This document shows positions 1,440 to 31,255 of a stretch of 32,000 nt of DNA, piece after piece. The position numbers were made by a program, and so were the translations under genes. This stretch comes from Bdellovibrionales bacterium (GTDB taxonomy: Bacteria > Bdellovibrionota > Bdellovibrionia > Bdellovibrionales > UBA1609). Position 1 is the stretch's first letter. Every line of letters starts with the position of its first letter. Below the pieces are notes generated by a model. That model was not told the DNA's origin, searched no databases, and worked only from the letters and a program-made list of their open reading frames with translations. The stretch spans positions 480,001-512,000 of the forward strand of contig OY843585.1 of assembly GCA_963692945.1 (NCBI GenBank), read 5' to 3'.

Positions 1440-1559
1440 TATTTCTCCTTTTTTTAGTTTACCATAAGTTATATGCAAAAACCATGCCAAGTTTTATAAA
1501 GAAATATGAAAAACAAAGTTTTTTAGTTCAAATAAATTGTTAGTAATATCATCTTATCT

Positions 1560-9100: not shown

Positions 9101-9106
9101 ATTTCT

Positions 9107-14548: not shown

Positions 14549-15472
14549 ATGATTACGGCTAAGAATTTAACTAAAAATTATGGTTATCGTAAGGCTATCT
14601 CTAATGTGTCCTTTAATGTTAATAAAGGTGAGATTGTTGGTTTTCTAGGTCCTAATGGGGCAGGAAAGACAACAACAATGAAAATACTAACAGGTTACAT
14701 GGCCCCCACTAGAGGAGATGTGTCCATTGATGGTATTGATATTTTTGAAGAGCCTGTTCTTGCTAAAAGGAAATTAGGTTATTTGCCAGAAGTTCCTCCT
14801 GTTTATGGAGATATGTATGTTGAAAACTATTTAAGATACGTTGCTCATTTAAAGTTATGTGAACCTAAAAAAATTAAAAATTTAGTGAATTTATCTATGG
14901 AAAAGACAGGTCTTGTTGATGTCCGTTCAAGACTTATACAAAATCTTTCAAAAGGTTTTAGGCAAAGAGTTGGTTTGGCTCAAGCTTTAGTGTCTGACCC
15001 AGAAATACTTATTTTAGATGAACCAACAGTGGGTTTAGATCCTAAACAAGTGATTGAAATGAGAGAGTTATTGGCTCAATTAAAGGGGCAACATACAATC
15101 ATTTTATCCACCCATATTTTACCAGAAGTTCAAATGAGTTGTGAGAGAGTGATTATTATCAATGACGGCGAAATTGTAACTCAAGATAGTTTAGAAGGTT
15201 TAAGTCGTAAGATGGCTGCAAAAAGCCAAATTTTTGTGAAAGTTAAAAGACTTTCAGAAGAGCTTATCAATAAACTAAAAAGTGTAAAAGGTGTATTGGA
15301 TCTTAGAAAAAAACAAGAGGGTGTAGAGATAGATGTTTCTCCAGAAGAAAATATAAATGAAGATATTGCAAAATCTGTTATTTCTGGAGGTTATGGTTTG
15401 TTGGAAATTAAAAATACCAATTTTGATTTAGAGGATGTGTTTATTAGTTTAACTAATAAACAAAAGAAATAA
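14549..15472 (+). CDS. ABC transporter ATP-binding protein (GldA-like)
   Basis: Walker A GPNGAGKTT, signature LSKGFRQR, Walker B ILILDEP. Confidence 0.9.
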   Translation: MITAKNLTKNYGYRKAISNVSFNVNKGEIVGFLGPNGAGKTTTMKILTGYMAPTRGDVSIDGIDIFEEPVLAKRKLGYLPEVPPVYGDMYVENYLRYVAHLKLCEPKKIKNLVNLSMEKTGLVDVRSRLIQNLSKGFRQRVGLAQALVSDPEILILDEPTVGLDPKQVIEMRELLAQLKGQHTIILSTHILPEVQMSCERVIIINDGEIVTQDSLEGLSRKMAAKSQIFVKVKRLSEELINKLKSVKGVLDLRKKQEGVEIDVSPEENINEDIAKSVISGGYGLLEIKNTNFDLEDVFISLTNKQKK

Positions 15473-15474
15473 AT

Positions 15475-16278
15475 ATGAAGGATTTTTTTACAGATATAAA
15501 AATGTTTTTCAGACAATCTAAAGTGATAGGTGTTAGAGATTTCTGGCAATTGCTTATGAGTCCTTTGTTTTATGTTTTTGTAGGTCTTTCCTGTATTTTT
15601 TTAAGTTATGTTTTTCCTAGGGATTTATTCCGTTTTGCTAGCTCTTACATTGTTCCTGCTTTTCAACAGGGGATGAATCAAGAGCGTAATATTCATTTTG
15701 AAGTTTTTGTTTCTCATATATCTTATATCAATTTAATATTTCTTTTTTGTGTTCCTGTTTTAGCTATGAAACTTTTATCCGAAGAGAAAAAAAATCGTAC
15801 CTATGATTTATTGATGACAGCACCTGTTTCTACTTTACAAATCGTGATGGGGAAATATGTAGCTCTTCTCTCCATTTTAACTATCTTTTTGTTGATAACT
15901 TTAATTTACCCATTATCCACAGCTTTTTTAACAGACATTCCAGCGGGACCTTTACTATCCTCTTACATTGGACTTTTCTTACTTACAGCTGTGTATGCTT
16001 CTATAGGTTTATTTACATCTTCTTTAACAAGTTCCTTATTTTTGAGTGTATTTATAGGTATCATTTTGAATATTTCTCTATGGTTTATTTCTCAAGGACA
16101 AGAATTTTCAAACCCTATTTTAACATCGGTTATGGAGTATCTTTCTTTATCTCAACATCTTACTAATTTTATTAAAGGGAGTTTAGTTATTAACTCTTTT
16201 ACTTTCTTTTTTAGTTTTATTGTTTTCTTTTTATTTCTTGTTTACAAAGTGATTGAATTTTCTAGATGGAGATCTTAA
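15475..16278 (+). CDS. ABC-2 type permease (GldF-like)
   Basis: About six hydrophobic helices. It lies immediately downstream of the ATPase. Confidence 0.75.
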   Translation: MKDFFTDIKMFFRQSKVIGVRDFWQLLMSPLFYVFVGLSCIFLSYVFPRDLFRFASSYIVPAFQQGMNQERNIHFEVFVSHISYINLIFLFCVPVLAMKLLSEEKKNRTYDLLMTAPVSTLQIVMGKYVALLSILTIFLLITLIYPLSTAFLTDIPAGPLLSSYIGLFLLTAVYASIGLFTSSLTSSLFLSVFIGIILNISLWFISQGQEFSNPILTSVMEYLSLSQHLTNFIKGSLVINSFTFFFSFIVFFLFLVYKVIEFSRWRS

Positions 16279-17883
16279 ATGAGTACTTGGGGTAAGTTAG
16301 GTCTTTTATTAAGTGGATTTTGTTTGATTGTGATGGCAGGGAGTCGCTCTGTTTTAGGAGTTTGGCATCCTTTCCTCTATGGGTTTTTAGCTTTATTTAT
16401 TGTAGGGCTTCTTGTTTCTTTAATTATAGACTATAAGTTTTATTTAGATTTTTTATCTATGAGGACAACCAAAAATGGTTTGAGTCTTGGTTGGTCTTTA
16501 ATATTGCTTCTTATTTTATTGGTAGCGTTTGGGTATTTAGGCAATCGGTTCAATAAGTCTTTTGACTTAACAGAAGAGGGTATTAACTCTTTAGCAATTC
16601 AAACAAAACAAGCTTTAGATAATTTAGAGGAAGAATTAAAAATATATGTTTTTTACAAAGGAGAAAAAATCTCTCAACAAACAATAGCATCCAAACAACT
16701 TTTGAAAGACAATTTATTTCTTTATAAACAAGAATCTTCAAAAGTTAAGGTGTTGTATATTGATACTTATAAAAACAATCTTCTATCTGAGAAGTTTCTA
16801 AACAATCTTTCTGATAAAAACAATAAAGAGATTTTTGTTTTTATAGAGTATGCAAATCGTAGAGTTAGAGCCGATGAACCTTTTACAGAGCAAAGTTTAA
16901 CTTCTGCTATGATTAAAGCAAAGAAAAGAGAGACAAAGGAAATTTATTTTGTAGTCGGTCATGGTGAAAGAAATTTAAAAGGGGAGCAACCCGATGGTGT
17001 AAAAGCTTTTGAACAGTATTTAAAAGATTCAGGTTTTATTTTGAAGGAATGGAGTTTTGTTCAAGATGGAGTTCCAACAAGAAATCCTCCTTTAGTCCTT
17101 GTTATAGGTCCGAGTCGTCCTTTTTTAAAGGCTGAACTCAATTGGTTTAAAAAGTATTTATCAGAGGAAGGTCGTCTTATTTTTGCGATTGATCCTAAAG
17201 AAAAACACAATTTAAGAAATTTTTTAAAAGAGTATGGTGTGGTTTTTAAAGATGGGTTTATTGTGAGCCAAATAGGGATGATCTATGGAGGAGTTACAAA
17301 AGCTTTAGGAGTTAGTTTTGATAGTATGAACTCTATCACGAAACGTTTTTCTTCTGGTAAAGATGTTGCCTTTTTTGAAAGAGCCAGTCCTTTAGATATT
17401 TTACCAGAGGCTTTTAATAAATTTAAATACTCTTATCTTATTCGCAGTCATAATAAAAGTTTTTCTGTTCCTCAATTAAGTAAAAAAATTAAAGTTACAA
17501 AATTTGAATCTTTAACTATGGCTTTAGAGGTTCGTCCTAAAGAAGATGGTCACGAAGGAGAAAGTGAAGAAGAACATAAAGGGCATGGACATGAAAAGGA
17601 TCAGGACTCAGAAGAGGGGTTTCGTCTTGCTGTCTTTGGAGATAGTGATTTTGTGAGTAATCGTTATTTTTATGAAGGTATCAATAGAGATTTGATTTTA
17701 AACACAGTGGTTTCTTTTTTAGGAGAAGAAGATTTGGTGACCATACGGCCTAAGCAACCTAAAGGTACAAAAGTAGATTTAACTCGTGTTCATAGAATGG
17801 GTATTGTTTTTTTAATGATAACTCTTCCTCTTGTTTTTCTTATAGTGAGCTTGCTTTTATGGTATCGTAGGAGAGAGGCGTGA
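16279..17883 (+). CDS. GldG-like ABC-transport auxiliary protein
   Basis: N- and C-terminal TM helices flank a large ectodomain. VVGHGE and FGDSDF motifs as remembered for the GldG/ABC_transp_aux family. A His/Glu-rich insert is encoded at about 17539-17616. Confidence 0.7.
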   Translation: MSTWGKLGLLLSGFCLIVMAGSRSVLGVWHPFLYGFLALFIVGLLVSLIIDYKFYLDFLSMRTTKNGLSLGWSLILLLILLVAFGYLGNRFNKSFDLTEEGINSLAIQTKQALDNLEEELKIYVFYKGEKISQQTIASKQLLKDNLFLYKQESSKVKVLYIDTYKNNLLSEKFLNNLSDKNNKEIFVFIEYANRRVRADEPFTEQSLTSAMIKAKKRETKEIYFVVGHGERNLKGEQPDGVKAFEQYLKDSGFILKEWSFVQDGVPTRNPPLVLVIGPSRPFLKAELNWFKKYLSEEGRLIFAIDPKEKHNLRNFLKEYGVVFKDGFIVSQIGMIYGGVTKALGVSFDSMNSITKRFSSGKDVAFFERASPLDILPEAFNKFKYSYLIRSHNKSFSVPQLSKKIKVTKFESLTMALEVRPKEDGHEGESEEEHKGHGHEKDQDSEEGFRLAVFGDSDFVSNRYFYEGINRDLILNTVVSFLGEEDLVTIRPKQPKGTKVDLTRVHRMGIVFLMITLPLVFLIVSLLLWYRRREA

Positions 17884-19232
17884 GAAAAAGGCTTGTTCGC
17901 CATATTGTTTCTCTGGGTTTTGTTTTTAGTGTTGTAGGTTATGCCTATTATGAGTACTTAAAAACTAAAGAATCTAAAAAGATAGAATCTCAAAGCAGTT
18001 ATTTTCTTACTCAGCAGTTTAAAGACCTTTCTGGAATAAAAATAAAAAAAGAAAAAAAAGTCATAACGCTTTTAAAAAAAAATCAAGATTGGTTTTTAAA
18101 AAAGCCCCTTAGAGATGTAGCCTCTTTTTCTGAAGTGTCTCGTTGGTTTGATGAAGTTAGAAATCAAAGAATAAGAGAGATTTTTATAGAGGGAGATATT
18201 GTATGGAAGGATTATTATCTTGAAAGGAGTCCTGAAGTTCAGTTGGAGTTTTCAAATGGAAGTTCAATAACTTTTTTAGTGAGTTCTAAAAGCTCCTTTG
18301 ATGAAAAATATTTTATAAAAAGAGACAATAAACTATTTGTTGGTGAGAAATATTTTTTTACGGAAGTGAATTCAAAAAGTTTTGATTCTTTTCGGCGTAA
18401 AAAGATCATTCCAAGTTATGGTCATCCTATAAAAGTTGTCCTTAAAAGTAACAGAACGCTATCTTTGAATTGGGATAATTATAAATGGTCTTTTAAAGAG
18501 AAAGATTTTCCTTTAAGTAACAAACGTTTAGATGATTTTTGGTCAGACTTATCTAGTATTGAGGCCCGATCATTTAAAGAAAGGGCAACGGCTTTTTATT
18601 TAAAAAAATATGGATTGGATCAAGCAGATTATCAAATACAGTTAAGTTATAGTGGTGGGAAGAAAACAACCATTAAAATAAATCCTGTAAAAAACAATCA
18701 GGTTTATGTTTATGGCTCTCATAGAGATTATATTTTAGAAATATCAAAAGAGGATATGGAAAAAATAAAAATTTCTAAAAACGATATTCGCGATCATGGT
18801 CAGGCTTTTCGGTATGAAAAAGATAAAGTTTCCAGTTTGGAGTTAAAATCTGAAAAGATATCTTACTCAGTTATAAAGAAAAAAGATCAATGGGTTTCTC
18901 TTTCTTCTCCAAAGAAAAAAGTGGATTCCAAAAAAGTTCAATCTCTACTGAACTCTATTTATAAGTTAAGAGGTCAAAAATATAAAAAGGGAAACCTTAA
19001 AAAAGTTGCAGCTTCTATTATAATTAAAGGAGCTTCTGGAAAAGTTTTACTGGAGTTAAAATCTGATTCAGGTGCAGGTTCTATCGTGTGGGTTCAAACC
19101 AATCTTTCTAAAGGTTTAGTGGCTATTTCTAAGTCTTCTTTAGATTTGATTTTGCAAAAACATGTTTACCATTCGGTTGTAAATTTGAAAAAAGACAAAA
19201 CAAAAAAATCAGATAAATCAGATAAAGAATAG
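17880..19232 (+). CDS. DUF4340-like protein (usual fourth gene of GldG-type ABC operons)
   Basis: GTGA overlap with the upstream stop. N-terminal TM anchor. The assignment rests on operon context plus general architecture. Its last ~125 nt are repeated twice downstream. Confidence 0.55.
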   Translation: MRKRLVRHIVSLGFVFSVVGYAYYEYLKTKESKKIESQSSYFLTQQFKDLSGIKIKKEKKVITLLKKNQDWFLKKPLRDVASFSEVSRWFDEVRNQRIREIFIEGDIVWKDYYLERSPEVQLEFSNGSSITFLVSSKSSFDEKYFIKRDNKLFVGEKYFFTEVNSKSFDSFRRKKIIPSYGHPIKVVLKSNRTLSLNWDNYKWSFKEKDFPLSNKRLDDFWSDLSSIEARSFKERATAFYLKKYGLDQADYQIQLSYSGGKKTTIKINPVKNNQVYVYGSHRDYILEISKEDMEKIKISKNDIRDHGQAFRYEKDKVSSLELKSEKISYSVIKKKDQWVSLSSPKKKVDSKKVQSLLNSIYKLRGQKYKKGNLKKVAASIIIKGASGKVLLELKSDSGAGSIVWVQTNLSKGLVAISKSSLDLILQKHVYHSVVNLKKDKTKKSDKSDKE

Positions 19233-19427: not shown

Positions 19428-20186
19428 ATGATGAAAACTTTATTTGCATTTACATTTGTATTTTTAATGAGTGGACTTTATATTCAACCGAGTTTTGCTA
19501 CTGAAAAAAAACAATTAGGTGAATCTTTATTAAGGAATGCAAGAAACGGAAATATAAACGCAGTGAAAGGTTTATTAAAAGACGGTGCAGATGTCAATTA
19601 CCTTGGAGTTGTTGAAAGAGATAACACTGCTATGAGTACTGCACTTATAGAAGCATCTACATATGGACATTACAATATGGTCAAGTTCTTGTTAGATAAA
19701 GGAGCAGATCCAGATGTTTTTAGATTACAATATATCTCAAAACATGTATCAAGTTCATTTCATGGAGCAGTCAGAAATGGGCATTTCAGTATTGTAAAAC
19801 TTTTGGCAGAAAGAGGGGCAAGTATTCCACCTAAACGTTTAAAAAAATATCCTGACTATTACAAAAGAAACATTCTACTTCATGAAGCGGTTAAATATAA
19901 ACATCTCAATATAGTGAAATTCTTATTAGATAAAGGGGTAGATATAAATGCAAAAGATAAAAATGGAAACACGGCCTTGCACTCACTAATTAAGCAGGGT
20001 AAGAGGGGTCTTTTAGATAAAAACACGTTTGATATAGCAGAATTATTGCTATCAAGAAAAGCAGATGTAAATGTAAAAAATAATCTTGGTCTAACTCCTT
20101 TCATGTCGGCAGATTCTTATAAACGAAAAACATTTTTAAAATTTTTAAAAGCAAATGGAATTAAAGGACAATACATTCAAAAGTAA
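19428..20186 (+). CDS. secreted ankyrin-repeat protein, paralogue 1
   Basis: Signal peptide MMKTLFAFTFVFLMSGLYIQPSFA. ANK motifs (GADVNY, NMVKFLLDKGADP, LLHEAVKYKHLNIVKFLLDKGVDINAKDKNGNTALH). RBS AGAGG. Confidence 0.85.
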   Translation: MMKTLFAFTFVFLMSGLYIQPSFATEKKQLGESLLRNARNGNINAVKGLLKDGADVNYLGVVERDNTAMSTALIEASTYGHYNMVKFLLDKGADPDVFRLQYISKHVSSSFHGAVRNGHFSIVKLLAERGASIPPKRLKKYPDYYKRNILLHEAVKYKHLNIVKFLLDKGVDINAKDKNGNTALHSLIKQGKRGLLDKNTFDIAELLLSRKADVNVKNNLGLTPFMSADSYKRKTFLKFLKANGIKGQYIQK

Positions 20187-20219
20187 AAAACCTGCGTTGG
20201 TAAGAGAATAGAAATTAGT

Positions 20220-20360
20220 TCTAAAGATTTAGTGGCTGTCTCTAAATCTTCTTTAGATTTGATTTTTCAAAAACATGTTTACCATTCGGTTGTAAAATCG
20301 GTTTTAAAAAAAGACATGAAACAAAATTTGAAAAAAGATAGAACAAAAAAAATCAGATAA
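20220..20360 (+). pseudogene. detached copy (X2) of the 3' end of the DUF4340 gene
   Basis: Reads SKDLVAVSKSSLDLIFQKHVYHSVVKSVLKKD...* in the same frame as the native SKGLVAISKSSLDLILQKHVYHSVV. There is no upstream coding continuity. Nucleotide homology to 19107-19272 continues past the stop. Confidence 0.65.
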
Positions 20361-20393
20361 AGAATAGATTGTAGCCACTATGAAAATAAGTGG

Positions 20394-20763
20394 CTAATAA
20401 CTACTAACTACTGATGATAATAATACTCACAAAAGATTCTACATCCTAAAAGTAAAATACGGTTAATAACTACTAACTACTGATGATAGTGCTCTCACAA
20501 AAGATTCTACATCCTAAAAATAAAATACGGTTAATAACTACTAACTACTGACGATAATAATACTCACAAAAGATTCTACATCCTAAAAGTAAAATACGGT
20601 TAATAACTACTAACTACTGATGATAGTGCTCTCACAAAAGATTCTACATCCTAAAAGTAAAATACGGTTACTAACTACTAACTACTGACGATAATAATAC
20701 TCACAAAAGATTCTACATCCTAAAAGTAAAATACGGTTACTAACTACTGATGATAATAATACT
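20394..20763. repeat. tandem repeat, ~69-bp unit, about 5.4 copies, two alternating variants
   Basis: Unit starts (taataac/tactaac) fall at 20395, 20464, 20532, 20601, 20669 and 20738, giving periods of 68-69. The variants differ at gatgataataatactcac versus gatgatagtgctctcac. Stops occur in all frames. Confidence 0.9.
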
Positions 20764-20788
20764 AGACCATGATCTAGTTTTTTTATCT

Positions 20789-20871
<83 letters not shown>

Positions 20872-20949
20872 GGTTTTTAATTGCATTAAATACTTAGATA
20901 TAGTTAATTATATATTAGTGTTAATCTTTTCAAAAAACTTAAGGAGATA

Positions 20950-21672
20950 ATGATGAAAATTTTATTTACATTTGTATTTTTAATGAGTGGATTTTATATT
21001 CAACCGAGTTTTGCTACTAAAAATAAAAAAGAACAATTAGGTGAATCTTTAGTAAAGCATGCAAAAAACGGAAATATAAACACAGTGGAAGGTTTATTAA
21101 AAGACGGTGCAGATATTAATTATTTCTTGGGCTTTGAGAATTCACTTATATCAGCATCTAGAGTTGGAGATTACAATATGGTCAAGTTCTTGTTAGATAA
21201 AGGAGCAGATATAAAGCGGGGTAATGTAAACATAATCACAAAATATATGAGAACTCCACTTCATGCATCAGTCAGATATGGGCATTTCAATATTGTAAAA
21301 TTTTTGACAGAAAGAGGGGCAAGTATTCCACCTAAAATCTCAAAAAAATATCCTGACTATTACAAAAGAAACATTCTACTTCATGAAGCGGTTAAAAATA
21401 AACATCTCAATATAGCGAAATTCTTATTAGATAAAGGGGTAGATGTAAATGCAAAAGATAAAAAGGGAAACACGGCCTTGTACTTAATAGTTAAGAAGGA
21501 AGGTAAGAAGGGTCTTTTAGATAAAAACGCGTTTGAAATTGCAAGATTATTGGTATCAAGAAAAGCAGATGTACATACAAAAAATGATCTTGGTCTAACT
21601 CCTTTTAAAGTGGCAACTTCTTATAAACGAAAAAAGTTTTTAAATTTTTTAAAAGCAAGTGGAGTTAAATAA
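20950..21672 (+). CDS. secreted ankyrin-repeat protein, paralogue 2
   Basis: Signal peptide MMKILFTFVFLMSGFYIQPSFA. ANK repeats (TPLHASVRYGHFNIVKFLTERGA, LLHEAVKNKHLNIAKFLLDKGVDVNAKDKKGNTALY). Confidence 0.85.
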   Translation: MMKILFTFVFLMSGFYIQPSFATKNKKEQLGESLVKHAKNGNINTVEGLLKDGADINYFLGFENSLISASRVGDYNMVKFLLDKGADIKRGNVNIITKYMRTPLHASVRYGHFNIVKFLTERGASIPPKISKKYPDYYKRNILLHEAVKNKHLNIAKFLLDKGVDVNAKDKKGNTALYLIVKKEGKKGLLDKNAFEIARLLVSRKADVHTKNDLGLTPFKVATSYKRKKFLNFLKASGVK

Positions 21673-21734
21673 TATATATTCAAAGGTAAAAGACCTGTGT
21701 TGGTCTTAGATTTTCAAAAAAACTTAAGGAGGTA

Positions 21735-22514
21735 ATGATGAAAATTTTATTTATATTTGTATTTTTAATGAGTGGATTTTATATTCAACCGAGTTTTGCT
21801 ACTAAAAATAAAAGAGATTTATTAGGTACATCTTTATTAAAGAATGTAAAAAACAGAAATATAAACACAGTGAAAGGTTTATTAAAAGACGGTGCAGATG
21901 TCAATTACACTGGAGATGAAGTAACAGATAATACTACTGCACTTATAGAAGCATCTAGAAATGGAGATTACAATATGGTCCAGTTCTTGTTAGATAAAGG
22001 AGCAGATCCAGAGCTTAGTAGAATCGGCACAGCAACAAACCATATATCAAGTCCACTTCTTGTAGCAATCAGAAATGGGGATTTCAATATGGTAAAATTT
22101 TTGGTAAAAAGAGGGGCAAGAATTCCAGCAACTGGACTCTTAAAAAGATATCCTAACTATTACAAAAGGCAAAGGCTACTTCATGAAGCGGTTAGATATA
22201 AACATATCAATATAGTGAAATTCTTATTAGATAAAGGGGTAGATGTAAATGCAAAAGATAAAAATGGAAATACTACCTTGCACTCACTAATTAAGCAGGG
22301 TAAGAGAGGTCTTTTAGATAAAAACACGTTTGATATAGCAGAATTATTGCTATCAAGAAAAGCAGATGTAAATGTAAAAAATAATCTTGGTCTAACTCCT
22401 TTCATGTCGGCAGATTCTTATAAACGAAAAACATTTTTAAAATTTTTAAAAGCAAATGGAATTAAAGGATATAAGTTCAAAAGAAGTAAAAGACCTGTTT
22501 TGGTAAGAGAATAG
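21735..22514 (+). CDS. secreted ankyrin-repeat protein, paralogue 3
   Basis: Same signal peptide and ANK repeats. It starts 62 nt after paralogue 2 with its own AGGAGG RBS but no intervening promoter block. Its 3' part is near-identical to paralogue 1. Confidence 0.85.
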   Translation: MMKILFIFVFLMSGFYIQPSFATKNKRDLLGTSLLKNVKNRNINTVKGLLKDGADVNYTGDEVTDNTTALIEASRNGDYNMVQFLLDKGADPELSRIGTATNHISSPLLVAIRNGDFNMVKFLVKRGARIPATGLLKRYPNYYKRQRLLHEAVRYKHINIVKFLLDKGVDVNAKDKNGNTTLHSLIKQGKRGLLDKNTFDIAELLLSRKADVNVKNNLGLTPFMSADSYKRKTFLKFLKANGIKGYKFKRSKRPVLVRE

Positions 22515-22819: not shown

Positions 22820-23314
22820 ATGAAACACGATATTAAAAAAATAAAATCTCAAAGACGTATCATGGATAAAAAACTTACATCATGGAAAAAACTTAGATTA
22901 GACAGAAGACCTCCGAAAGGTTGGTTGCGATCCATTCGAGAATCTTTAGGGATGAGCATTACACAACTAGCAAAAAGAGTTGGAGTTAGTAACCATTCAT
23001 CCATTGTCCGTTTAGAAGAAAGAGAATCTCAAGGTAAAGCCTCTATTGAATCTCTTAGTAAAGCTGCTGAAGCTATGAATTGTAAGTTTATTTATGCGAT
23101 TGTTCCAAAAAAAGAATTTTCTAGTTTAGAAGATATTATAGATCAACGAGCAAAAAAAATGGCAAAGAATATAATTAGAGAAGTAGATCAAACTATGAGA
23201 CTTGAGTCTCAAGGTGTTTTTACTCAAAAAGAGATACAAAAACAAATCTCTAAGACGTCTGTAGATTTAAAATCTAAGATCATCTCTTCTTTCTGGAAAG
23301 ATACTAAAGAATAA
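22820..23314 (+). CDS. mobile mystery protein A-like HTH protein
   Basis: The HTH segment LRSIRESLGMSITQLAKRVGVSNHSSIVRLEERE and its pairing with a downstream Fic gene match the mobile mystery protein A/B pair as I remember it. Confidence 0.65.
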   Translation: MKHDIKKIKSQRRIMDKKLTSWKKLRLDRRPPKGWLRSIRESLGMSITQLAKRVGVSNHSSIVRLEERESQGKASIESLSKAAEAMNCKFIYAIVPKKEFSSLEDIIDQRAKKMAKNIIREVDQTMRLESQGVFTQKEIQKQISKTSVDLKSKIISSFWKDTKE

Positions 23315-23917
23315 ATGAGTAAAATTAAGTTAGATTACCCAAGTGGAGCAACACCTCTTGATAAGAATGAAATGGCAGGCCTTATACCTAGTTATATTAC
23401 AACGCAAGATGAATTAAATGATTTAGAACAAGAAAATATCAAAGTAGCTACTGAATGGACTTACACTAAAAACTTTTCAGATATTCTCAATGTAACATTC
23501 TGTCTTGATCTTCATAAAAAAATGTTCAATGAGGTATGGAGCTGGGCTGGAATGTTTAGACAAACTCAAAAAAATTTAGGTGTTGATCCACAAGAAATCG
23601 GAGATAAATTAGAACAATTATTTCAAAATACAAAGTATTGGATTGAAAACAACATTTATGAATGGGATGAATTAGCTACTAGGTTTCATCATAAGTTAGT
23701 TTCTATTCATTGCTTTTCAAATGGAAATGGTCGTCATGCTCGTTTAATGACTAACTTACTTTTAAAAGTAAATAATAAAAAACTTTTTACATGGGGAAGT
23801 AAAAGTTCTAAATGTCCGATTGAAACTCAAGGTACAATTCGCAACTCTTACCTATCTGCTCTTAAAAAAGCAGATAATAATTCTTTTTCTGATCTTATTA
23901 TTTTTGTTAGAAGTTAG
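23315..23917 (+). CDS. Fic/DOC family protein (mobile mystery protein B-like)
   Basis: Fic motif HCFSNGNGRHAR at residues 132-143 (nt 23708-23743). The ATG directly follows the stop of the upstream gene (TAAATG). Confidence 0.8.
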   Translation: MSKIKLDYPSGATPLDKNEMAGLIPSYITTQDELNDLEQENIKVATEWTYTKNFSDILNVTFCLDLHKKMFNEVWSWAGMFRQTQKNLGVDPQEIGDKLEQLFQNTKYWIENNIYEWDELATRFHHKLVSIHCFSNGNGRHARLMTNLLLKVNNKKLFTWGSKSSKCPIETQGTIRNSYLSALKKADNNSFSDLIIFVRS

Positions 23918-23942
23918 GTTTAATTTATTTGATTTTCAGTTT

Positions 23943-24296
23943 TTAATTAACACACTCTGTTATTTCTTTAAATTTTTTAAACATAGTAATAGAACATTTT
24001 TTATGTATTTCAAAACCTTTATCTGGTTGCAAACATTCGTTAGACTGGCTTGCAATTGCATTTAATTTTTTGCCCTTATCTTTGCTTACTTGAAGAAAAC
24101 CTGAACCTAAAGTGCGAATTGTGTTAAGATAAGAAATAGTACAATTAATAAACATCTCGTCACTTCTAACTTTTTCAATACATTTAATTGTTTCGCTAAA
24201 AAAATGACAACGTAATTCTTGATTAGATGGAGCGGAATTGTTAGGTGCTATTCCCCACGCTTTAAATGTAATCAAGAAAAGTAAAAGATACCTCAT
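23943..24296 (-). CDS. small secreted Cys-containing protein, unknown function
   Basis: 117 aa. Signal-like N-terminus MRYLLLFLITFKAWG. Six Cys residues in the mature part. No motif recognised. Confidence 0.45.
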   Translation of the reverse strand: MRYLLLFLITFKAWGIAPNNSAPSNQELRCHFFSETIKCIEKVRSDEMFINCTISYLNTIRTLGSGFLQVSKDKGKKLNAIASQSNECLQPDKGFEIHKKCSITMFKKFKEITECVN

Positions 24297-24399
24297 AAAT
24301 TCTCCTTATTTTTGAAATCTAATGTATATAAACATAAGAGTTACCCTTATTTTTGTCAATTATTTTTTTAAGGTTTTAGAAAATTTGAAATTGATGTGT

Positions 24400-24577
24400 A
24401 TTTCCGTTACTAGGGAATGCATTATACTAAAGAAACTTGTAATAATTACACACGCCCCCGTATATAACAGGTTTCAGTTACTAGGGAATGTGTTGTACTA
24501 AAGAAACTGTTAATATGCCCAATAGGACTTATGAAAAGGAGTTTCAGTTACTAGGGAATGTGTTATACTAAAGAAAC
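24400..24577. CRISPR. orphan CRISPR-like mini-array: three 37-bp repeats, two spacers (34 and 33 nt)
   Basis: R1 24400-24436 atttccgttactagggaatgcattatactaaagaaac has 4 mismatches to R3. R2 24471-24507 has 1 mismatch. R3 24541-24577 is gtttcagttactagggaatgtgttatactaaagaaac. The spacers ttgtaataattacacacgcccccgtatataacag and tgttaatatgcccaataggacttatgaaaagga are unrelated to each other. The six-frame track contains no cas-like ORF. Confidence 0.6.
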
Positions 24578-24688
24578 TGAGTGTAAGCACCTACATAAAA
24601 GTCTAAGGCTTGTACCGCACTATGCTTTTAATATTAAGACACATGGAAGATTGTCTGAATTGAGAACAAACGGGAGGATTAAAAACCC

Positions 24689-25225
24689 TTGAAAATGAAA
24701 AAATATTTTTCTAGAAAATTTCTTTTTTCCATAAAAGGACGATTAAATAGAAAAGACTATGTATTATTTAATTTAGTTTTTTTATCTTTAATCTCTTTAG
24801 TTGTAATTTTAAGACCTGTGGTTGAAAATATTTCTACTTCTCTCCCTCCTATTCAGACTCTGTCTATTCTTCCTCTGATTCTTCTTCTGATTCAGACTGT
24901 TCTTCTCGCTCTTTTTCTGATTCTTCTGGCAGCTATAATTTATATTCTAGTAGCTTGTTATATTTTTGGATCAATTTCAACAACTATAAAAAGGCTTCAT
25001 GATTTCAATTTTAGTGGTTGGTGGTTGTTTTTTGCTTTTATTTTGTTTGTAATTTTATGTTTATTAGAGCTTGTTATGACTGGGAAATTGGAAAGTGCTA
25101 TCGATTCATTTGACGAATTAATTACATATAATTTATTTGGGAGTATTTTTGCTCTATTGCTTATATTCAAAAAAGGAACAGTAGGGAAAAATAAATTTGG
25201 AGAGGGATCCATAAAAGTAGTTTAA
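24689..25225 (+). CDS. DUF805 family inner-membrane protein
   Basis: GRLNRKDY near the N-terminus and KRLHDFNFSGWW are the DUF805 hallmarks. Multiple TM helices. The start is ambiguous (TTG 24689 or ATG 24695). Confidence 0.7.
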   Translation: MKMKKYFSRKFLFSIKGRLNRKDYVLFNLVFLSLISLVVILRPVVENISTSLPPIQTLSILPLILLLIQTVLLALFLILLAAIIYILVACYIFGSISTTIKRLHDFNFSGWWLFFAFILFVILCLLELVMTGKLESAIDSFDELITYNLFGSIFALLLIFKKGTVGKNKFGEGSIKVV

Positions 25226-25285: not shown

Positions 25286-26392
25286 CTAAAAGCTTTTTGT
25301 GATATTGAGATCAAAATCTTTTTTGAGAGAAGGGATTTTTTTAGGAGGAGATTTCATAACATTTAACCAGTTTTCTGGAGTCTCCATACATAAAAAAATA
25401 TTCCAGTCTGGGTCATGCTCTTTAAATTTGTTCAAGACATATTGAAACATCTTTTGACGAACTTCATTGTCATAGCGAAGTTTTCCATCTTTGCCTCTAA
25501 AAAACTCTCCTCTGCAAACAAGACTTTCCATTCCAAAACGTTTTCTCATTATGGATTTTTGAAAGGGTTGGAATCGTAAAGCTCCTAAGGAAATATGAGT
25601 CACTTCTTTTGCAGAAAACAAGGAAGTGATTTGTTGAACCAACTCTCCATAATTTGTTTTCCATTCGGGATGATAAATAAGAGGGTCTATATGAAAAGAT
25701 AGTCTAAATCCTTTGTCTCTCACTTTTTGAGCGGCTTCCAATCTTTTTTTAAGAGAGGCTGTTCCATGTTCTTCTTTTGTAACAATGTATTCAGGGTTGA
25801 TAGACCAACTCACAACAACATTTCCAATATGGTTTTCCTTTTCAAAATTTTTAATATTGTCAGATTTTGTTTTAAATTCAAGAAGCCAGTTTGGACAATC
25901 TTTAAAGAAATGAACTAATTTTTTAGAGTAAAGACTTATGTCATCAAGGCTTAAACTATCTGTTTGTTCCCCTGTTCCAATGCGAATGTATTGGTCTTTG
26001 TATTTGTTTTTTAAATCTTTTAATTCCTCTAAGGCCTGCTCTATGTTGGTGTAAATAACAACGGCAGGGAAGTTGATAAAAGATTGTAAGTAACAATAAG
26101 AGCAATCCATTTCACAATGTTGACCAAGATTTAAAACATAATAATTGCAACACATCATTTTAGGATTAGCTCCAGGACATCTTTTGAAAAAAGACCCTTT
26201 AAACTTTTTTAAGAGAAGCGTTTTTTTACTTTTATCCATATCAGAAGCCGATAAACTTCCTTTTTTAAAATCATCTTCTTCTATAATTTGAATTTTACTT
26301 TTAGGGAAAAGAGATAAAATCCTTTGAGCCACTTCACTGTTTTTAGAAGATCTTTCAATATAAATTTTTTCAAAATAATTTAGGAGTTCCAT
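25286..26392 (-). CDS. spore-photoproduct-lyase-like radical SAM protein (SplB family)
   Basis: CEMDCSYC is a CxxxCxxC radical SAM cluster motif. IGTGEQTDSL resembles the SPL family. I prefer the ATG at 26392 (MELLNYFEKIYIE...). The longer track ORF to 26485 would overlap the upstream gene by 53 nt. Confidence 0.75.
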   Translation of the reverse strand: MELLNYFEKIYIERSSKNSEVAQRILSLFPKSKIQIIEEDDFKKGSLSASDMDKSKKTLLLKKFKGSFFKRCPGANPKMMCCNYYVLNLGQHCEMDCSYCYLQSFINFPAVVIYTNIEQALEELKDLKNKYKDQYIRIGTGEQTDSLSLDDISLYSKKLVHFFKDCPNWLLEFKTKSDNIKNFEKENHIGNVVVSWSINPEYIVTKEEHGTASLKKRLEAAQKVRDKGFRLSFHIDPLIYHPEWKTNYGELVQQITSLFSAKEVTHISLGALRFQPFQKSIMRKRFGMESLVCRGEFFRGKDGKLRYDNEVRQKMFQYVLNKFKEHDPDWNIFLCMETPENWLNVMKSPPKKIPSLKKDFDLNITKSF

Positions 26393-26432
26393 TATTTTAG
26401 TTGTTCCGTGATTTTTTTGTGAAGAGATGTGA

Positions 26433-26933
26433 TTAATTGTTCCATAATTTTTTTTCTTTTTTAATGGTATCTTTGATTTGTTCAAGATTTTTTATTTTTT
26501 GTTCTAAATCTTTTATAGAAGAGCTTTGGAAAGAAACTTCTAAACACCCTTGGTCTTTATTGCGAACCCATCTTCCTTTCAAAAAAGATGACCAAGGTAA
26601 GTTTTTTATAATTTGAGTCCTCTGTTTATCTTGTTTAGAAGACAAAGGGTATCTTAAATCTTTTAGTTTTTTTAATAGAATTTTTGGATCGTGTTCTTTT
26701 TCAAAAAGAATCTTAAGAGATTTTCCCATAAGAAGCAATTCTCCACTGAGCTCTAAAATTTGAGAACCTTGGGAGTGACTAGGTTGATTTTGTCCTATCC
26801 ACTCTAAAATGGGTTTAATAGAATCCAATTTAGAAAATTCTGTGAGAATGCTCAATTCTCTAAGACTTAGTTTTTTATCTTTCACCCAAGATTTAAAAGG
26901 AAGAGAGTGTTTTAAAATTTGAGGAAGTTCCAT
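26433..26933 (-). CDS. hypothetical protein
   Basis: 166-aa ORF immediately upstream of and co-oriented with the SPL-like gene. No motif recognised. Confidence 0.45.
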   Translation of the reverse strand: MELPQILKHSLPFKSWVKDKKLSLRELSILTEFSKLDSIKPILEWIGQNQPSHSQGSQILELSGELLLMGKSLKILFEKEHDPKILLKKLKDLRYPLSSKQDKQRTQIIKNLPWSSFLKGRWVRNKDQGCLEVSFQSSSIKDLEQKIKNLEQIKDTIKKEKKLWNN

Positions 26934-27101: not shown

Positions 27102-27443
27102 CTATTTTGATACTGGTGTTTTTGGATTGGTTTTAGAATTTACTGGGGGTTTAGAATCAGCAGGAGATTCTTCTGAAGAAACATTTTTTAGACCAGACAT
27201 TAAATCACTGTCTTGGTTGGAACTTACATAAGATAAGTAAATAGAAGTGGAAGCAAAGACAATGGCTAACCATTTGGTTGTTTGGACTAAGAAATTAGAA
27301 GCACCACCTGTTCCAAAAAGAGATTTGCTGCCACCGCCTCCTCCTAAAGTTCCTAAAACGCCTCCTTTAGGGTCTTGAAGAAGTATAAAAATCACCACAA
27401 AGATACAAGTTAGAAGATGAATAATAGAGGCCATGTAAACCAT
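27102..27443 (-). CDS. secG: preprotein translocase subunit SecG
   Basis: ILLQDPKGGVLGTLGGGGGSKSLFGTGGASNFL...TKWLAIVFASTSIYLSY is the SecG pattern. The ATG at 27443 has AGGT upstream. The track start at 27461 is TTG. Confidence 0.8.
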   Translation of the reverse strand: MVYMASIIHLLTCIFVVIFILLQDPKGGVLGTLGGGGGSKSLFGTGGASNFLVQTTKWLAIVFASTSIYLSYVSSNQDSDLMSGLKNVSSEESPADSKPPVNSKTNPKTPVSK

Positions 27444-27552
27444 AGACTTACCTATAAACAAAAATGCTGTATTTGAAAAGAAAAAAGATAAATTTTTGTA
27501 AGAATTATTGGTGTTAGGAGCCGTTTATAGGCATTAAAAGTTATGGATTTGA

Positions 27553-28818
27553 CTAGGGTTTAAAAAAACTTTCTATGATATCCCAAGTTTTATGTAAATC
27601 TTCTTTAGAAATACAATACGGTGGAAGAATATAAATGGTTCCACCTAAAGGCCTTAGAAAAACACCTTTATCAAAGGCTTTTTTTGTCCATTCTTCTGAA
27701 AGTAAGGAGCCATAGCCTTTAGAGTTTTCAACTTCAACGGCTGCAATAAGTCCTTTCCAACGAACATCTTTTAATTGAGAGCTTTTTTGAAGCTGTTCCG
27801 CTCTTTCTTTATGAATGGATTCAATTTTTTTCCATTTGTCTTTTAAAGTTTGTTTGTTTTTTTTCAAGAGTTTTAAATTGGCATAAGCAGCCGCACAGGA
27901 GATAGGATTTCCTGTAAAACTATGACCATGAAAAAGAGCCGTTTCTTTTTTATTGGATAAAAAATCTTCATAAATAGAATTTGAACTTATAGTTAAAGCC
28001 AAAGGTAAAGAACCTCCTGTTAATCCTTTGGAAAGGCAGAGTATGTCAGGTTTTGTATGTAATTGCTCTAAAGCAAAGAGTGTTCCTGTTCGGCCAAAAC
28101 CAGTCATCACTTCATCAAAAATAAGATAAACTCCAGCTTCTTTTGTGATTTTGCAAATATGTTCTAAGGCTTCTTGAGGCCAAATAATCATGCCACCCGC
28201 TCCTTGAATAAAAGGTTCTATGATAACAGCGGCAAGATTTTTATGATGTTTTTCTAATTTTCTTTCAAAATCTTCATAAAATGTTTTTACAGAGTCTGTG
28301 CTAAAATGTCCTTGTTGGGAAAGTTCAATAGAAAATAAAAGAGGTTTGTAAGGTTTTGTAAAAACACTAGGTGCACTTACACTCATAGCTCCTACAGTGT
28401 CTCCATGATAAGAATGACTGAAACTTAAAAATTTTTTTCTATTAGGTTCTCCTTTTTGATTCCAACTTTGCAGTGACATTTTTAAAGCCACTTCCACAGC
28501 GGTTGACCCATTGTCAGAGAAAAAAACTTTTTGAAGATTTTTAGGTAAAAGGCTTAGCAATTCATTGGCTAGATTTTCGGCTGTTTCATGTGTGAGATTA
28601 GCAAATAAAATTTGATCTAATTTTTGAACTTGGTTTTGAATGGCTTGAACAATCTCTGGTTCACAATGCCCATGAGTGATAACCCACCAAGAAGAAATAG
28701 CATCAATTATTTTTTTTCCATTTTGTAATAAAAGATAAGTCCCTTTTGCTTCAGAAACTTTCGGAAAACTTTTATCGGCCAATTTCATTTGAGTGAAAGG
28801 TCGCCAAATAGAAGACAT
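27553..28818 (-). CDS. bioA: adenosylmethionine-8-amino-7-oxononanoate aminotransferase
   Basis: Class-III aminotransferase motifs: WWVITHGHCEPEI, DEVMTGFGRTG, and the PLP lysine context LSKGLTGG. Sits in a bio operon. Confidence 0.9.
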   Translation of the reverse strand: MSSIWRPFTQMKLADKSFPKVSEAKGTYLLLQNGKKIIDAISSWWVITHGHCEPEIVQAIQNQVQKLDQILFANLTHETAENLANELLSLLPKNLQKVFFSDNGSTAVEVALKMSLQSWNQKGEPNRKKFLSFSHSYHGDTVGAMSVSAPSVFTKPYKPLLFSIELSQQGHFSTDSVKTFYEDFERKLEKHHKNLAAVIIEPFIQGAGGMIIWPQEALEHICKITKEAGVYLIFDEVMTGFGRTGTLFALEQLHTKPDILCLSKGLTGGSLPLALTISSNSIYEDFLSNKKETALFHGHSFTGNPISCAAAYANLKLLKKNKQTLKDKWKKIESIHKERAEQLQKSSQLKDVRWKGLIAAVEVENSKGYGSLLSEEWTKKAFDKGVFLRPLGGTIYILPPYCISKEDLHKTWDIIESFFKP

Positions 28819-28819
28819 A

Positions 28820-29503
28820 TTATGGATGTTGTTCTTGGGGATAGAGAGGTTGATGATTTTTAGATAAGGTTTGTACTTTTACAGTGTTTGATTGAGAGTG
28901 TTTGAAAACCTCTTCTTCTAAATTTCTTAACAAGGTAAAGTAAATTTGATGTTCATACTCTTTAATCTCTTCAAAATTTTGTTCAGAAAAAGGATCTAGT
29001 TTTTTAATAGAATACATAACCGTCTCAAGATGTTTTTCTTCTTCTTTCAAGATGCAATTCACTGTAAAAGGAAAATCATTTCTTTCTAAAATTTTATTAT
29101 ATATAGAATAAACCAGAGTGGCTCGTAATTCTACAATATAGGTTGTGTATAAGTAATTCAAAATAGTATTAGATCGGGATAAAGTTTTAGACTTTTGATC
29201 TATTTGTTGAAAGTAACTTTCGGCTTGTTTAGAACATAGCATTTCATGTTCATGAAAGGATAAATCTTTTCCAGAAACTTTTTTAGCCAGTCTTTTGAAA
29301 AAAAGACTGTGGCGGGATTCTTCGTTAATGTGTTCCAGAAGAGTTTCATTTAAACTGTGAGCTGGAAGGCTTTTTAACATTTTGCGAGTTCCAATGTATT
29401 CCAAAAAAGATAAGGTGTTTAACCAAGAAGAATGTGTAGTCTTATCAGAAATAATCCTCTCTAAAATTTTTATTAAAAGTAGAGTGGTTTTTTTGGATTG
29501 CAT
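28820..29503 (-). CDS. uncharacterised ferritin-like diiron-carboxylate-motif protein embedded in the bio operon
   Basis: Residues E35...E62-S-R-H65 and E125...E155-E-K-H158, i.e. a duplicated E-x(27-30)-ExxH. Predicted all-helical. The stop lies 1 nt from the bioA ATG. Confidence 0.6.
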   Translation of the reverse strand: MQSKKTTLLLIKILERIISDKTTHSSWLNTLSFLEYIGTRKMLKSLPAHSLNETLLEHINEESRHSLFFKRLAKKVSGKDLSFHEHEMLCSKQAESYFQQIDQKSKTLSRSNTILNYLYTTYIVELRATLVYSIYNKILERNDFPFTVNCILKEEEKHLETVMYSIKKLDPFSEQNFEEIKEYEHQIYFTLLRNLEEEVFKHSQSNTVKVQTLSKNHQPLYPQEQHP

Positions 29504-29580
29504 CGTCTAGAGGATAGATTTTTTATTATAAAATAGCAAAACTTTTTTGGTAATCCTTTTTATAAGAGAAGGTTTGTTTG

Positions 29581-30177
29581 TTAAATTTTAAAACCTTGAA
29601 AGACCTTTAGAATTTCTTGCTTTGTGATTTGTTGAAGGTGGGGGATTTCTAACAAAATTGGAACTTCGCTCCAATTTTGTAAGTCTTTTTTATTTAAGGG
29701 GTGTGGTTCACCTGAAAGAATAAGTCCTGCCACTTCAAGTCCTCTGGATTTTAAGGTTTCAAGTGTCAGAAGGCTGTGGTTTAAAGTTCCCAGTCCACTT
29801 CTAGCAACAACAAGAATGGGTAATTGAAGTTGTTTCATCAAATCCAATTGGCTTTCCTTGTTGTTGAGAGGAACAAAAACTCCTCCTAAACCTTCTACTA
29901 TTAAAAAATCAGCACTTGGTTTTTGGATGTTTTTCAAGGAGAGACTTTGTTGTTCTTTTTGAGCCGCTTGGTTAGGAGATAAGGGATGTTTGAAGGAGTA
30001 AGAGCTTTTGTGTATTTTTTGAGATTCTAAAAAGGGACGAATAAAATCACTGTCTGTTGGTTCTCCAGTTTGTATGGGTTTCCAATAGCTAGCTTTAAAA
30101 AAAAGACAGAGACCTAAAGAGACTAGAGTTTTCCCCACCCCCGTATCTGTTCCTGTAACAAAAAAACCTTTAGACAT
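29581..30177 (-). CDS. bioD: dethiobiotin synthetase
   Basis: P-loop FFVTGTDTGVGKT, about 200 aa, overlaps the bioF stop by 8 nt. Confidence 0.9.
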   Translation of the reverse strand: MSKGFFVTGTDTGVGKTLVSLGLCLFFKASYWKPIQTGEPTDSDFIRPFLESQKIHKSSYSFKHPLSPNQAAQKEQQSLSLKNIQKPSADFLIVEGLGGVFVPLNNKESQLDLMKQLQLPILVVARSGLGTLNHSLLTLETLKSRGLEVAGLILSGEPHPLNKKDLQNWSEVPILLEIPHLQQITKQEILKVFQGFKI

Positions 30178-31255
30178 TTTGTAAATGATTTTTTAAGTTT
30201 TCTAAATCTTTTTCATTGTGCTTGTATTGTAAAATGACTCTTAAACCGGCTTGTTCTTTAGGCACTGTAGGATAACGAATGGCTCGGATGTTAAACCCTT
30301 TTTCTCTAAGTTTTTTTGCTTTTTCAAGAGCTGATGTAGGGGTTTTTAACCAGATGGGAAGAATAGGACTTTCACTTTCTTTAAGTGAGAGAGATTTTCT
30401 AAATTGTAAAGATTTTTTTCTCACTTCTAAAGGTCTATACACTTCCGATTTTAAAACTTCTACGGCCGCTTTCCACTGAACCATTAAAAGAGGAGGTGGA
30501 GCTGTTGTATAAATAAAAGAGCGACAATAATTTACAAGATAGTCTTTGATGAGTTTGGAGCAGGCAACAAAAGCTCCTGAACTCCCTAGAGCCTTTCCAC
30601 AAGTATGAAGAGATACAATATGTTCTTTGTCTTTTAGATCATAGACCAACCCTGAAAATTGACGACCAAACAGACCTGTAGAGTGAGCTTCATCCACAAC
30701 AAGAAGGGCTTTGTGTTTTAGAGCCAAATCAGACAATTGTTTTAAATGTGAAAAATCTCCTTCTATACTAAAGAGGCTTTCTGTTACCAGAAGTTTTTCT
30801 CGTTTTTCTTTTTTCAATAAATCTTCTAAAACATTTAGATCATTGTGAGGAAAAATATGATAAGGGGAGTGGCTTAAACGAATGCCGTCAATAAGGCTTG
30901 CATGGTTTAATTCATCTGAGAAAATGACTTTATTTTTTGCTAGAGCAGGAATCAGTCCAACATTTGCTAGATAACCTGATGAAAAACTTACAATGGATGG
31001 TCTTCCTGTAAAGTCTTGTAGAATGGTTTCTGTTTCTTCATGCCATGTTGTTGTTCCCGACAGCAGCCTAGAAGATTTTGCGGAAAGCTCTATGTTGTTT
31101 TCAAGAGCTGCTATCATTTCTTCACGAATTGTAGGATGAGTGCTAAGATTTAAGTAATCGTTAGAAGTAAAATCTAAGCCGTTGAGTTTATTGGTTTTGC
31201 GATAAATATTTTTCTTTTTTCTGTCTTCTAAATTTTTTTCAAAAAGATCAAACAT
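30170..31255 (-). CDS. bioF: 8-amino-7-oxononanoate synthase
   Basis: Class-II aminotransferase fold. DEAHSTG and the PLP lysine context HTCGKALGSSG. Overlaps the bioB stop by 8 nt. Confidence 0.9.
   Translation of the reverse strand: MFDLFEKNLEDRKKKNIYRKTNKLNGLDFTSNDYLNLSTHPTIREEMIAALENNIELSAKSSRLLSGTTTWHEETETILQDFTGRPSIVSFSSGYLANVGLIPALAKNKVIFSDELNHASLIDGIRLSHSPYHIFPHNDLNVLEDLLKKEKREKLLVTESLFSIEGDFSHLKQLSDLALKHKALLVVDEAHSTGLFGRQFSGLVYDLKDKEHIVSLHTCGKALGSSGAFVACSKLIKDYLVNYCRSFIYTTAPPPLLMVQWKAAVEVLKSEVYRPLEVRKKSLQFRKSLSLKESESPILPIWLKTPTSALEKAKKLREKGFNIRAIRYPTVPKEQAGLRVILQYKHNEKDLENLKNHLQNV

Follow-up and report, generated by a model that had tools for sequence, protein, structure and literature searches.

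Organization of the biotin gene cluster

The stretch of DNA analysed here (the window) covers 32 kb of a Bdellovibrionales contig of about 1.56 Mb (total length 1,561,448 bp). At one end of the window, five minus-strand genes follow one another in the order bioB-bioF-bioD-X-bioA, where X denotes an ORF whose product is predicted to be a ferritin-like diiron oxygenase. The genes flanking X were identified with the curated models of Pfam and NCBIfam, and the features of the cluster are as follows:

27553..28818, minus strand: bioA (adenosylmethionine-8-amino-7-oxononanoate transaminase); TIGR00508, 529.7 bits against a cut-off of 405
28820..29503, minus strand: bioE homologue X; ORF of 227 aa, predicted ferritin-like diiron oxygenase
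29504..29580, minus strand: bioD-bioE intergenic spacer of 77 nt; promoter-like TTACCA-17-TATAAT at 29553..29525
29581..30177, minus strand: bioD (dethiobiotin synthase); TIGR00347, 133 bits against a cut-off of 83.3; Pfam AAA_26, 1e-52
30170..31255, minus strand: bioF (8-amino-7-oxononanoate synthase); TIGR00858 as top match, 1.7e-100, 336 bits
31248..>32000, minus strand: bioB (biotin synthase), 3' part only; TIGR00433, 299 bits, model positions 81-306

The matches of bioA, bioD and bioB were above the curated cut-offs; that of bioF (336 bits) was below the TIGR00858 equivalog cut-off of 426, and its assignment is supported also by its position in the operon. Since the TIGR00433 match of bioB begins at model position 81, the 5' end of this gene lies beyond the window. 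Coordinates and curated models confirmed the preliminary description of a 227-aa ORF inserted between bioD and bioA and ending immediately before the latter: the stop codon of X (28822..28820) and the ATG of bioA (28818..28816) are separated by 1 nt, a spacing which suggests translational coupling. The promoter-like site in the bioD-bioE spacer matches at 10 of 12 positions and might drive bioE-bioA from within the operon, but a scan of the region for promoters and terminators gave no more sites than shuffled sequence did, so that this evidence is weak. Several relatives carry bioE-bioA alone, without bioBFD nearby, as seen by tblastn of their loci. The GC content of X (29.8%) matches that of the window (31.2%), so the gene looks native. 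Other genes in the window code for HtrA, a MoxR/DUF58/BatA-D operon, a murein transglycosylase, a GldA/F/G-like ABC system, ankyrin-repeat proteins, 'mobile mystery' proteins A and B, a DUF805 protein, SecG and a spore-photoproduct-lyase-like radical SAM enzyme.

A conserved diiron motif and a predicted helical fold

X carries the duplicated E/ExxH motif that had been read from its sequence (E35, E62xxH65, E125 and E155xxH158). The first homology search with X yielded 95 proteins, none with a name other than 'hypothetical' and all from MAGs of Bdellovibrionales or Oligoflexia, and the six putative iron ligands were invariant in 32/32 aligned homologues, down to 30% identity. A profile scan using one genome per species then gave 175 relatives, 80 of which were kept; these span Bdellovibrionales, Leptospirales, Gammaproteobacteria, Elusimicrobia, Myxococcales, Pedobacter, Myroides, Flavobacterium, Dyadobacter and many Chlamydiae. 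In a joint alignment covering several phyla and reaching down to about 27% identity, the six ligands were present in 84/84 sequences, which disposes of the concern that the motif residues might not be conserved among homologues. G38, K41, H58, E61, Y97, Y117, R127 and E184 were invariant in the same 84 sequences. The spacing of the ligands is 27/3 in the first half of every sequence and 30/3 in the second half of nearly all, and the halves are joined by a linker of variable length (58 to 95 residues). Invariance and spacing together argue that the motif of X is not a chance pattern. The family is compact: clustered at 50% identity, it comprises 730 representatives at E ≤ 0.001, 590 of them at E ≤ 1e-10. 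An apparent 923-aa 'fusion' protein at one locus (L043) was most likely an artefact of the start-codon rule on a high-GC contig.

In line with the helical structure predicted earlier, an AlphaFold2 model of X built from the 32-sequence alignment was all-helical (mean pLDDT 91.2, pTM 0.84), with the ligands located on helices 21-45, 53-77, 113-141 and 149-169 and a disordered C-terminal tail comprising residues about 200-227. When the PDB sequences were searched with the X family profile, the matches included designed diiron four-helix bundles (E = 7e-5 to 2e-3), the cyanobacterial aldehyde decarbonylase (cADO) 5uwz (E = 0.0025), which was the sole natural enzyme among the top matches, and the ferritin-like diiron-carboxylate protein TM1526 (E = 0.007). 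The same search with X as a single sequence gave noise only. The profile matches to diiron bundles and cADO are consistent with the proposed placement of X among ferritin-like proteins, but Foldseek found nothing significant for the X model in the PDB (best ferritin-like matches at E about 0.25-0.6; 4kvq, a cADO, at E = 0.64). cADO is ferritin-like and diiron-containing and cleaves a C-C bond in chains derived from fatty-acyl groups, all of which it would share with X; however, the sequence similarity between the two is marginal, cADO takes C1 off an aldehyde and it shows no linkage to bio genes. The profile match to 5uwz agrees with the statement of the authors who characterised BioE that cADO is the structurally characterised relative nearest to this enzyme (PMC12704756).

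Homology of X to characterised BioE enzymes

Two papers of December 2025 describe BioE, one from Elizabethkingia and Chryseobacterium (PMC12704756), the other from Chlamydia psittaci (PMC12915131); on this point the preliminary description, which took acyl cleavage by a diiron oxygenase in biotin synthesis to be undescribed, has been overtaken. The enzyme, a non-haeme diiron oxygenase of the ferritin-like type, cuts C14, C16 and C18 acyl-CoA/ACP at C7-C8, giving pimeloyl-CoA/ACP and the Cn-7 acid (PMC12704756). The enzymes of E. meningoseptica (EmBioE, BBD33_16475) and Chryseobacterium indologenes (CiBioE, CEQ15_06550) require O2 and a reductant, contain about 2 Fe per monomer and complement delta-bioC, delta-bioH and delta-bioC/H mutants of E. 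coli (PMC12704756). EmBioE loses its activity when any of E26, E53, H56, E125, E155 and H158 is replaced (PMC12704756), and each of the six diiron ligands of the C. psittaci enzyme CpBioE (E41, E68, H71, E140, E170 and H173) is essential by mutagenesis (PMC12915131). CpBioE is a monomer, uses acyl-ACP only and has no BioL (PMC12915131), so that it differs from EmBioE in carrier preference and oligomeric state, while the pimeloyl product is the same (PMC12704756, PMC12915131). The characterised enzymes were assayed with NADH/PMS as the reductant (PMC12704756, PMC12915131).

A search with the homologue of Myroides phaeus led to an E. meningoseptica protein of 209 aa (WP_407483761.1; P0205 in our set), which has F24, E26, R31, K32, E53, H56, R87, E125, E155 and H158 and thereby agrees with the published EmBioE numbering at 10/10 positions. 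On the strength of this indirect identification through residue numbering, P0205 is treated here as EmBioE itself or an allele nearly identical to it. BLASTP aligned residues 13-208 of X with residues 4-208 of P0205 (about 196 aligned; 28% identity, E = 5e-25), and all six ligands were in register (X/EmBioE: E35/E26, E62/E53, H65/H56, E125/E125, E155/E155, H158/H158). X was 30% identical (E = 7e-30) to the Myroides protein, whose gene lies in a bioL/bioE-bioF-bioD arrangement, and the Bdellovibrionales clade as a whole showed about 28-30% identity to the characterised enzymes. Alignment of the X family profile with a Bacteroidota BioE profile of 20 sequences by hhalign gave a probability of 100% and E = 1.9e-40 over 196 columns.

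Conservation extends to positions around the substrate. The proximal carrier contacts F24, R31 and K32 of EmBioE are kept in X as F33, R40 and K41, and the channel residues W33, L37, L40, Y147 and Y150 of CpBioE, mapped by their offset from the ligands using published residue numbers only, correspond to W27, L31, L34, Y132 and Y135. The basic distal carrier patch is not kept, X having E95/S96/Q99 where EmBioE has R87/Q88/H91 and CpBioE K102/Y103/D106. This column is variable over the 84 sequences (R in 20, E in 17, L in 14, others in the remainder); the patch is therefore no hallmark of the family, and carrier preference of X is not to be inferred from it.

X resembles EmBioE and CiBioE in length (about 200-230 aa), in its single, predicted ferritin-like domain, in the six identical ligands at 27/3 and 30/3 spacing, and in that its gene adjoins late bio genes. 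It differs from EmBioE in gene order (bioD-bioE-bioA instead of bioE-bioF-bioD), in lacking a divergent MocR-type BioL gene, in a linker of 60 residues, which is 9 shorter than the 69 of EmBioE, and in about 25 additional disordered residues at its C-terminus. By the published residue numbers, the linker of CpBioE is also 69 residues (PMC12915131), i.e. again 9 longer than that of X. With CpBioE, which was compared through homologues in Chlamydiae MAGs and through published numbers, X shares the ligand pattern, the absence of BioL, a compact bioBFDA-type operon and a small genome, whereas the Chlamydiae homologues form a clade of their own and have the order bioB-F-D-A-E. X is very probably a divergent BioE of the kind already published.

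Linkage of the family to bio genes

The BioA, BioD, BioF and BioB proteins of the window were used as tblastn queries against the 80 loci. In 64 of these, bio genes were found within 8 kb of the homologue, and nearly always directly adjacent, so that the linkage to bio genes, asked about at the outset, also holds for the family in other genomes. The linked loci belong to Bdellovibrionales, Oligoflexia, Gammaproteobacteria, Chlamydiae, Bacteroidota, Elusimicrobia and Myxococcales; about a fifth of all loci have no bio genes nearby, including every locus of the Leptospirales clade. Clades in a neighbour-joining tree of the homologues differed in gene order: E-F-D, E-F-D-A or E-B(-A) in the Bacteroidota clade, which contains EmBioE; B-F-D-A-E in the Chlamydiae MAG homologues, which are separate in the tree; mostly B-F-D-A-E in a mixed clade of Oligoflexia, Gammaproteobacteria and others; and B-F-D-E-A, or E-A alone, in the Bdellovibrionales clade, to which the window belongs. 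In the Leptospirales clade the homologue stands alone, often beside lgt; its neighbours (lgt, a peptidase and unknown genes) are uninformative on function.

In the published Elizabethkingia and Chryseobacterium genomes, bioE lies beside bioF-bioD and is repressed by the MocR-type regulator BioL (PMC12704756). Myroides phaeus has the arrangement published for Elizabethkingia, with a divergent 499-aa MocR-type gene followed by the homologue, bioF and bioD. With the Myroides BioL-like protein as the tblastn query, BioL-like MocR genes were found beside Bacteroidota homologues only (L051, L052, L055, L056 and L058), and none in the window or at the loci of the other clades. Adjacency to bio genes has been retained under three gene orders in phyla far apart from one another, which argues strongly that the family has a role in the pathway.

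These data also bear on whether X might instead be a ferritin-like protein of an unrelated kind that merely sits in the bio operon, for example a peroxide scavenger resembling rubrerythrin, a protein for iron storage or a COQ7-/AurF-like hydroxylase. Such a protein could be suspected from the 'rubrerythrin' label carried by some Bacteroidota homologues, from a precomputed COQ7 Pfam match on one distant homologue (P0093), from the location of one homologue next to ubiE (L024) and from a weak match of X to Pfam AurF (E = 0.028, 14 bits). The last was the only Pfam match of X and falls under the cut-off of 29.6; COQ7 and rubrerythrin gave nothing at E ≤ 0.1 and NCBIfam gave no matches, so that X reaches the threshold of no Pfam or NCBIfam model. 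Neither database has a model for the BioE family. In view of the unambiguous homology to experimentally characterised BioE, and of an adjacency to bio genes in at least six phylum-level groups and three gene orders that chance placement does not explain, we regard an unrelated ferritin-like protein as extremely improbable.

Other routes to the pimeloyl moiety

In agreement with the earlier remark that the visible operon lacks a gene for pimeloyl-thioester supply, no bioC, bioH, bioW, bioI or bioZ was found within the 32-kb window. Among the window ORFs of at least 100 aa, nearly all of which were scanned (those omitted being too short for any pimeloyl-route enzyme), there was no methyltransferase, alpha/beta-hydrolase, P450, KAS III or pimelate-CoA ligase, and tblastn with E. 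coli BioC and BioH gave no match in the window. At the 80 related loci, the same two queries gave matches in two (the strongest in L024, and two weak ones in L035 with E about 0.002-0.004). The BioC-like match beside the homologue in L024 was identified as a UbiE/MenG methyltransferase and rejected as a candidate. Where bioD and bioE are separated in related loci, the intervening DNA contained repeats, purD-like genes or unrelated ORFs, and no bioC/bioH-type gene or reductase partner.

X could be a functional BioE and yet be redundant, with a BioC/BioH-type or other pimeloyl route encoded elsewhere in the genome, given that the window takes in 32 kb of the roughly 1.56-Mb contig. We consider this unlikely: neither the window nor the DNA between the bio genes at related loci yielded such a gene, the strongest BioC-like match across the 80 loci was the UbiE/MenG methyltransferase of L024, redundancy would be less expected in a small genome, and the published BioE-bearing Weeksellaceae are without other pimeloyl routes (PMC12704756). 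BioE would then be the only pimeloyl source in this genome, the absence of other routes having been seen within the 32-kb window.

Proposed function of X

Homology, conservation of the ligands and synteny together make it very likely that X is a functional BioE orthologue that makes a pimeloyl thioester. In Bacillus subtilis, long-chain acyl-ACP is converted to pimeloyl-ACP by the P450 BioI (CYP107H1) through O2-dependent cleavage at C7-C8. The original idea that X is a diiron oxygenase which supplies the pimeloyl moiety by an analogous oxidative C-C cleavage gains support, since this function is now published for BioE and X is a clear homologue in sequence. BioI and X would nevertheless be functional analogues only: the proposed task is the same, but a haem-thiolate P450 and a diiron four-helix bundle are unrelated in fold and cofactor.

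By analogy with the characterised enzymes, the four-helix bundle of X would hold two Fe through E35, E62, H65, E125, E155 and H158. A C14-C18 acyl chain from the fatty-acid synthesis of the cell, bound to ACP (or CoA), would enter the hydrophobic channel formed by W27, L31, L34, Y132 and Y135. Drawing on O2 and an electron donor, the enzyme would oxidise C7 and C8 over several rounds before cutting the bond between them, a net ten-electron oxidation that would free the distal Cn-7 fatty acid and leave pimeloyl-ACP/CoA. BioF, encoded two genes upstream, would then join the pimeloyl thioester with alanine, and BioA, BioD and BioB would complete biotin. Of the two carriers, acyl-ACP is favoured as the substrate of X, being the direct product of FAS II.

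It is also conceivable that X belongs to the BioE family and still serves biotin synthesis, but that its chemistry or substrate has diverged within the Bdellovibrionales clade, for example towards another chain length or carrier, towards a hydroxylated or desaturated intermediate as the end point, or towards a dedicated partner bound by the tail. Several features would fit such a divergence, namely the identity of only 28% to EmBioE, the residues E95/S96/Q99 in place of R87/Q88/H91 (EmBioE) or K102/Y103/D106 (CpBioE), the shorter linker between the halves, the clade's own disordered tail with its conserved terminal motif, and an arrangement of genes that sets the clade apart, bioE being tightly coupled to bioA. 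On the other hand, X has the ligands, the invariant second-shell residues and the channel residues W27/L31/L34/Y132/Y135 in common with the characterised enzymes, the BioF of the operon still requires a pimeloyl donor, and EmBioE and CpBioE, despite differing in carrier and oligomeric state, form the same pimeloyl product. Changed chemistry or substrate therefore appears very unlikely to us, and a pimeloyl-forming BioE is the reading that we retain for X.

Features of the Bdellovibrionales clade

The published surveys, which used >40% identity to EmBioE, found BioE in Bacteroidota families, Burkholderiaceae and Chlamydiaceae (PMC12704756, PMC12915131). The Bdellovibrionales BioE clade, with its own bioD-bioE-bioA order, shorter linker and tail, is in neither of these papers (PMC12704756, PMC12915131). 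Its tail extension of about 25 residues is missing from the EmBioE-numbered P0205 and mostly has a conserved end of the type ...S-Y-H-Q-K-I; the protein of the window and its closest relatives end in ...Q-E-Q-H-P/L. The coupling of X to bioA is tight and probably translational. One speculative interpretation, to which we attach a low probability, is that the tail works in a clade-specific manner as a docking peptide, like the C-terminus of RNR R2, for a partner that could be the electron donor, ACP or a downstream Bio enzyme. If this were true, tail docking would offer a handle on which partner reduces BioE in vivo.

Implications

How organisms with bioFADB but without bioC, bioH, bioW, bioI or bioZ obtain pimelate was answered by BioE in December 2025. 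Our data widen the distribution of this family: homologues that are linked to bio genes and have all ligands intact occur in Bdellovibrionales, Oligoflexia, uncultured Gammaproteobacteria, Elusimicrobia, Myxococcales, Verrucomicrobiae and environmental Chlamydiae. Within the family, the tail of the Bdellovibrionales clade and the variable carrier patch provide ways into the carrier choice and the electron donor of BioE. BioE-family genes are still annotated as 'hypothetical' or 'rubrerythrin', some databases applying the latter label to Bacteroidota homologues, and with mislabelled genes and no Pfam or NCBIfam model to detect them, genome-based calls of biotin prototrophy will be wrong for these lineages.

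Organization of bioE loci

Comparison of window positions 27553..29580 with other genome loci carrying bioE homologues showed that in many Bdellovibrionales (L002–L005, L007, L008 and L010) bioE and bioA form a pair by themselves, and none of bioB, bioF and bioD is close by. The 77-nt spacer that separates bioD from bioE in the window contains the following element:

29553..29525, match to TTACCA-17-TATAAT

Together, the isolation of the pair in many relatives and this match in the spacer hint that bioE–bioA is a separate transcription unit. Directly after bioA lies secG, both in the window (27102..27461, reverse strand) and on a distantly related Bdellovibrionales chromosome (L018, 4925..5323), so the bio cluster has a conserved downstream end. 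At another locus (L011, about 6965..7800), a 24-nt unit is repeated perfectly in tandem over a long stretch between bioD and the BioE homologue; in one frame the array reads as about 30 copies of HYRKSQLL.

In Bacteroidota, a divergently transcribed gene of about 499 aa coding for a MocR-type protein (GntR plus aminotransferase) was found directly upstream of the BioE homologue (L051, L052, L055, L056 and L058). The layout in the Pedobacter and Myroides loci is that published for BioL, the MocR-type repressor of bioE, and the MocR-type proteins of the two genera share 55–57% identity. This arrangement is confined to the Bacteroidota clade.

Throughout the Leptospirales/Spirochaetia clade (L021, L027, L028, L030, L031, L032, L036 and L042), no bio gene was present within 8 kb of the homologue, and all six diiron ligands (E35, E62, H65, E125, E155 and H158 in the window protein) are intact; at two of these loci (L030 and L042) the homologue follows lgt, the gene for prolipoprotein diacylglyceryl transferase. 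The genomes of this clade either have their bio genes scattered or use the homologue in a different role. On an Oligoflexia contig (L024, 993..3324), the homologue is preceded by genes for a DAHP synthase and a UbiE/MenG quinone methyltransferase rather than by bio genes, and one distant homologue (P0093) has a precomputed COQ7 Pfam match.

C-terminal extension of Bdellovibrionales BioE

The window protein and its homologues P0002–P0074, of the Bdellovibrionales BioE clade, carry a C-terminal extension modelled with low confidence (pLDDT about 50):

28823..28906, reverse strand, tail of the window BioE (residues about 200–227)

In most clade members the tail has the conserved terminal motif S-Y-H-Q-K-I or Y-H-K-I; the window protein and the homologues closest to it end in Q-E-Q-H-P/L. 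EmBioE, the Elizabethkingia meningoseptica enzyme, in contrast has no such tail, which in the Bdellovibrionales may be a docking peptide.

Other genes in the window

Further genes were assigned as follows:

186..1490, reverse strand, 234-aa protein with an archaeal Hjc-type Holliday-junction-resolvase domain (PF01870, 3e-9), adjoined by a small HTH_3 regulator gene
5387..12777, forward strand, complete Bat-type operon (MoxR AAA ATPase, DUF58, a 270-aa ORF of unknown kind, BatA-like and BatB-like VWA proteins, BatC-like TPR protein and BatD)
14549..19232, forward strand, GldA/GldF/GldG-like ABC transporter set and DUF4340 protein, all scoring below the equivalog cut-offs for gliding-motility proteins
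19428..22514, forward strand, three tandem paralogous genes (about 240–260 aa)
22820..23917, forward strand, 'mobile mystery protein A/B' pair (TIGR02612 and TIGR02613, both above cut-off), with an AT-rich region without clear genes (23900..24700) just after it
25286..26933, reverse strand, 399-aa spore-photoproduct-lyase-like radical SAM protein (PF20903, 4e-33), its gene overlapping by about 50 nt an upstream 166-aa ORF without a family match

The three tandem paralogues resemble the Legionella Dot/Icm Ank effectors in their ankyrin repeats. Taken together with a contig of only 1.56 Mb and a window GC content of 31%, these genes suggest that the source organism is host-associated.
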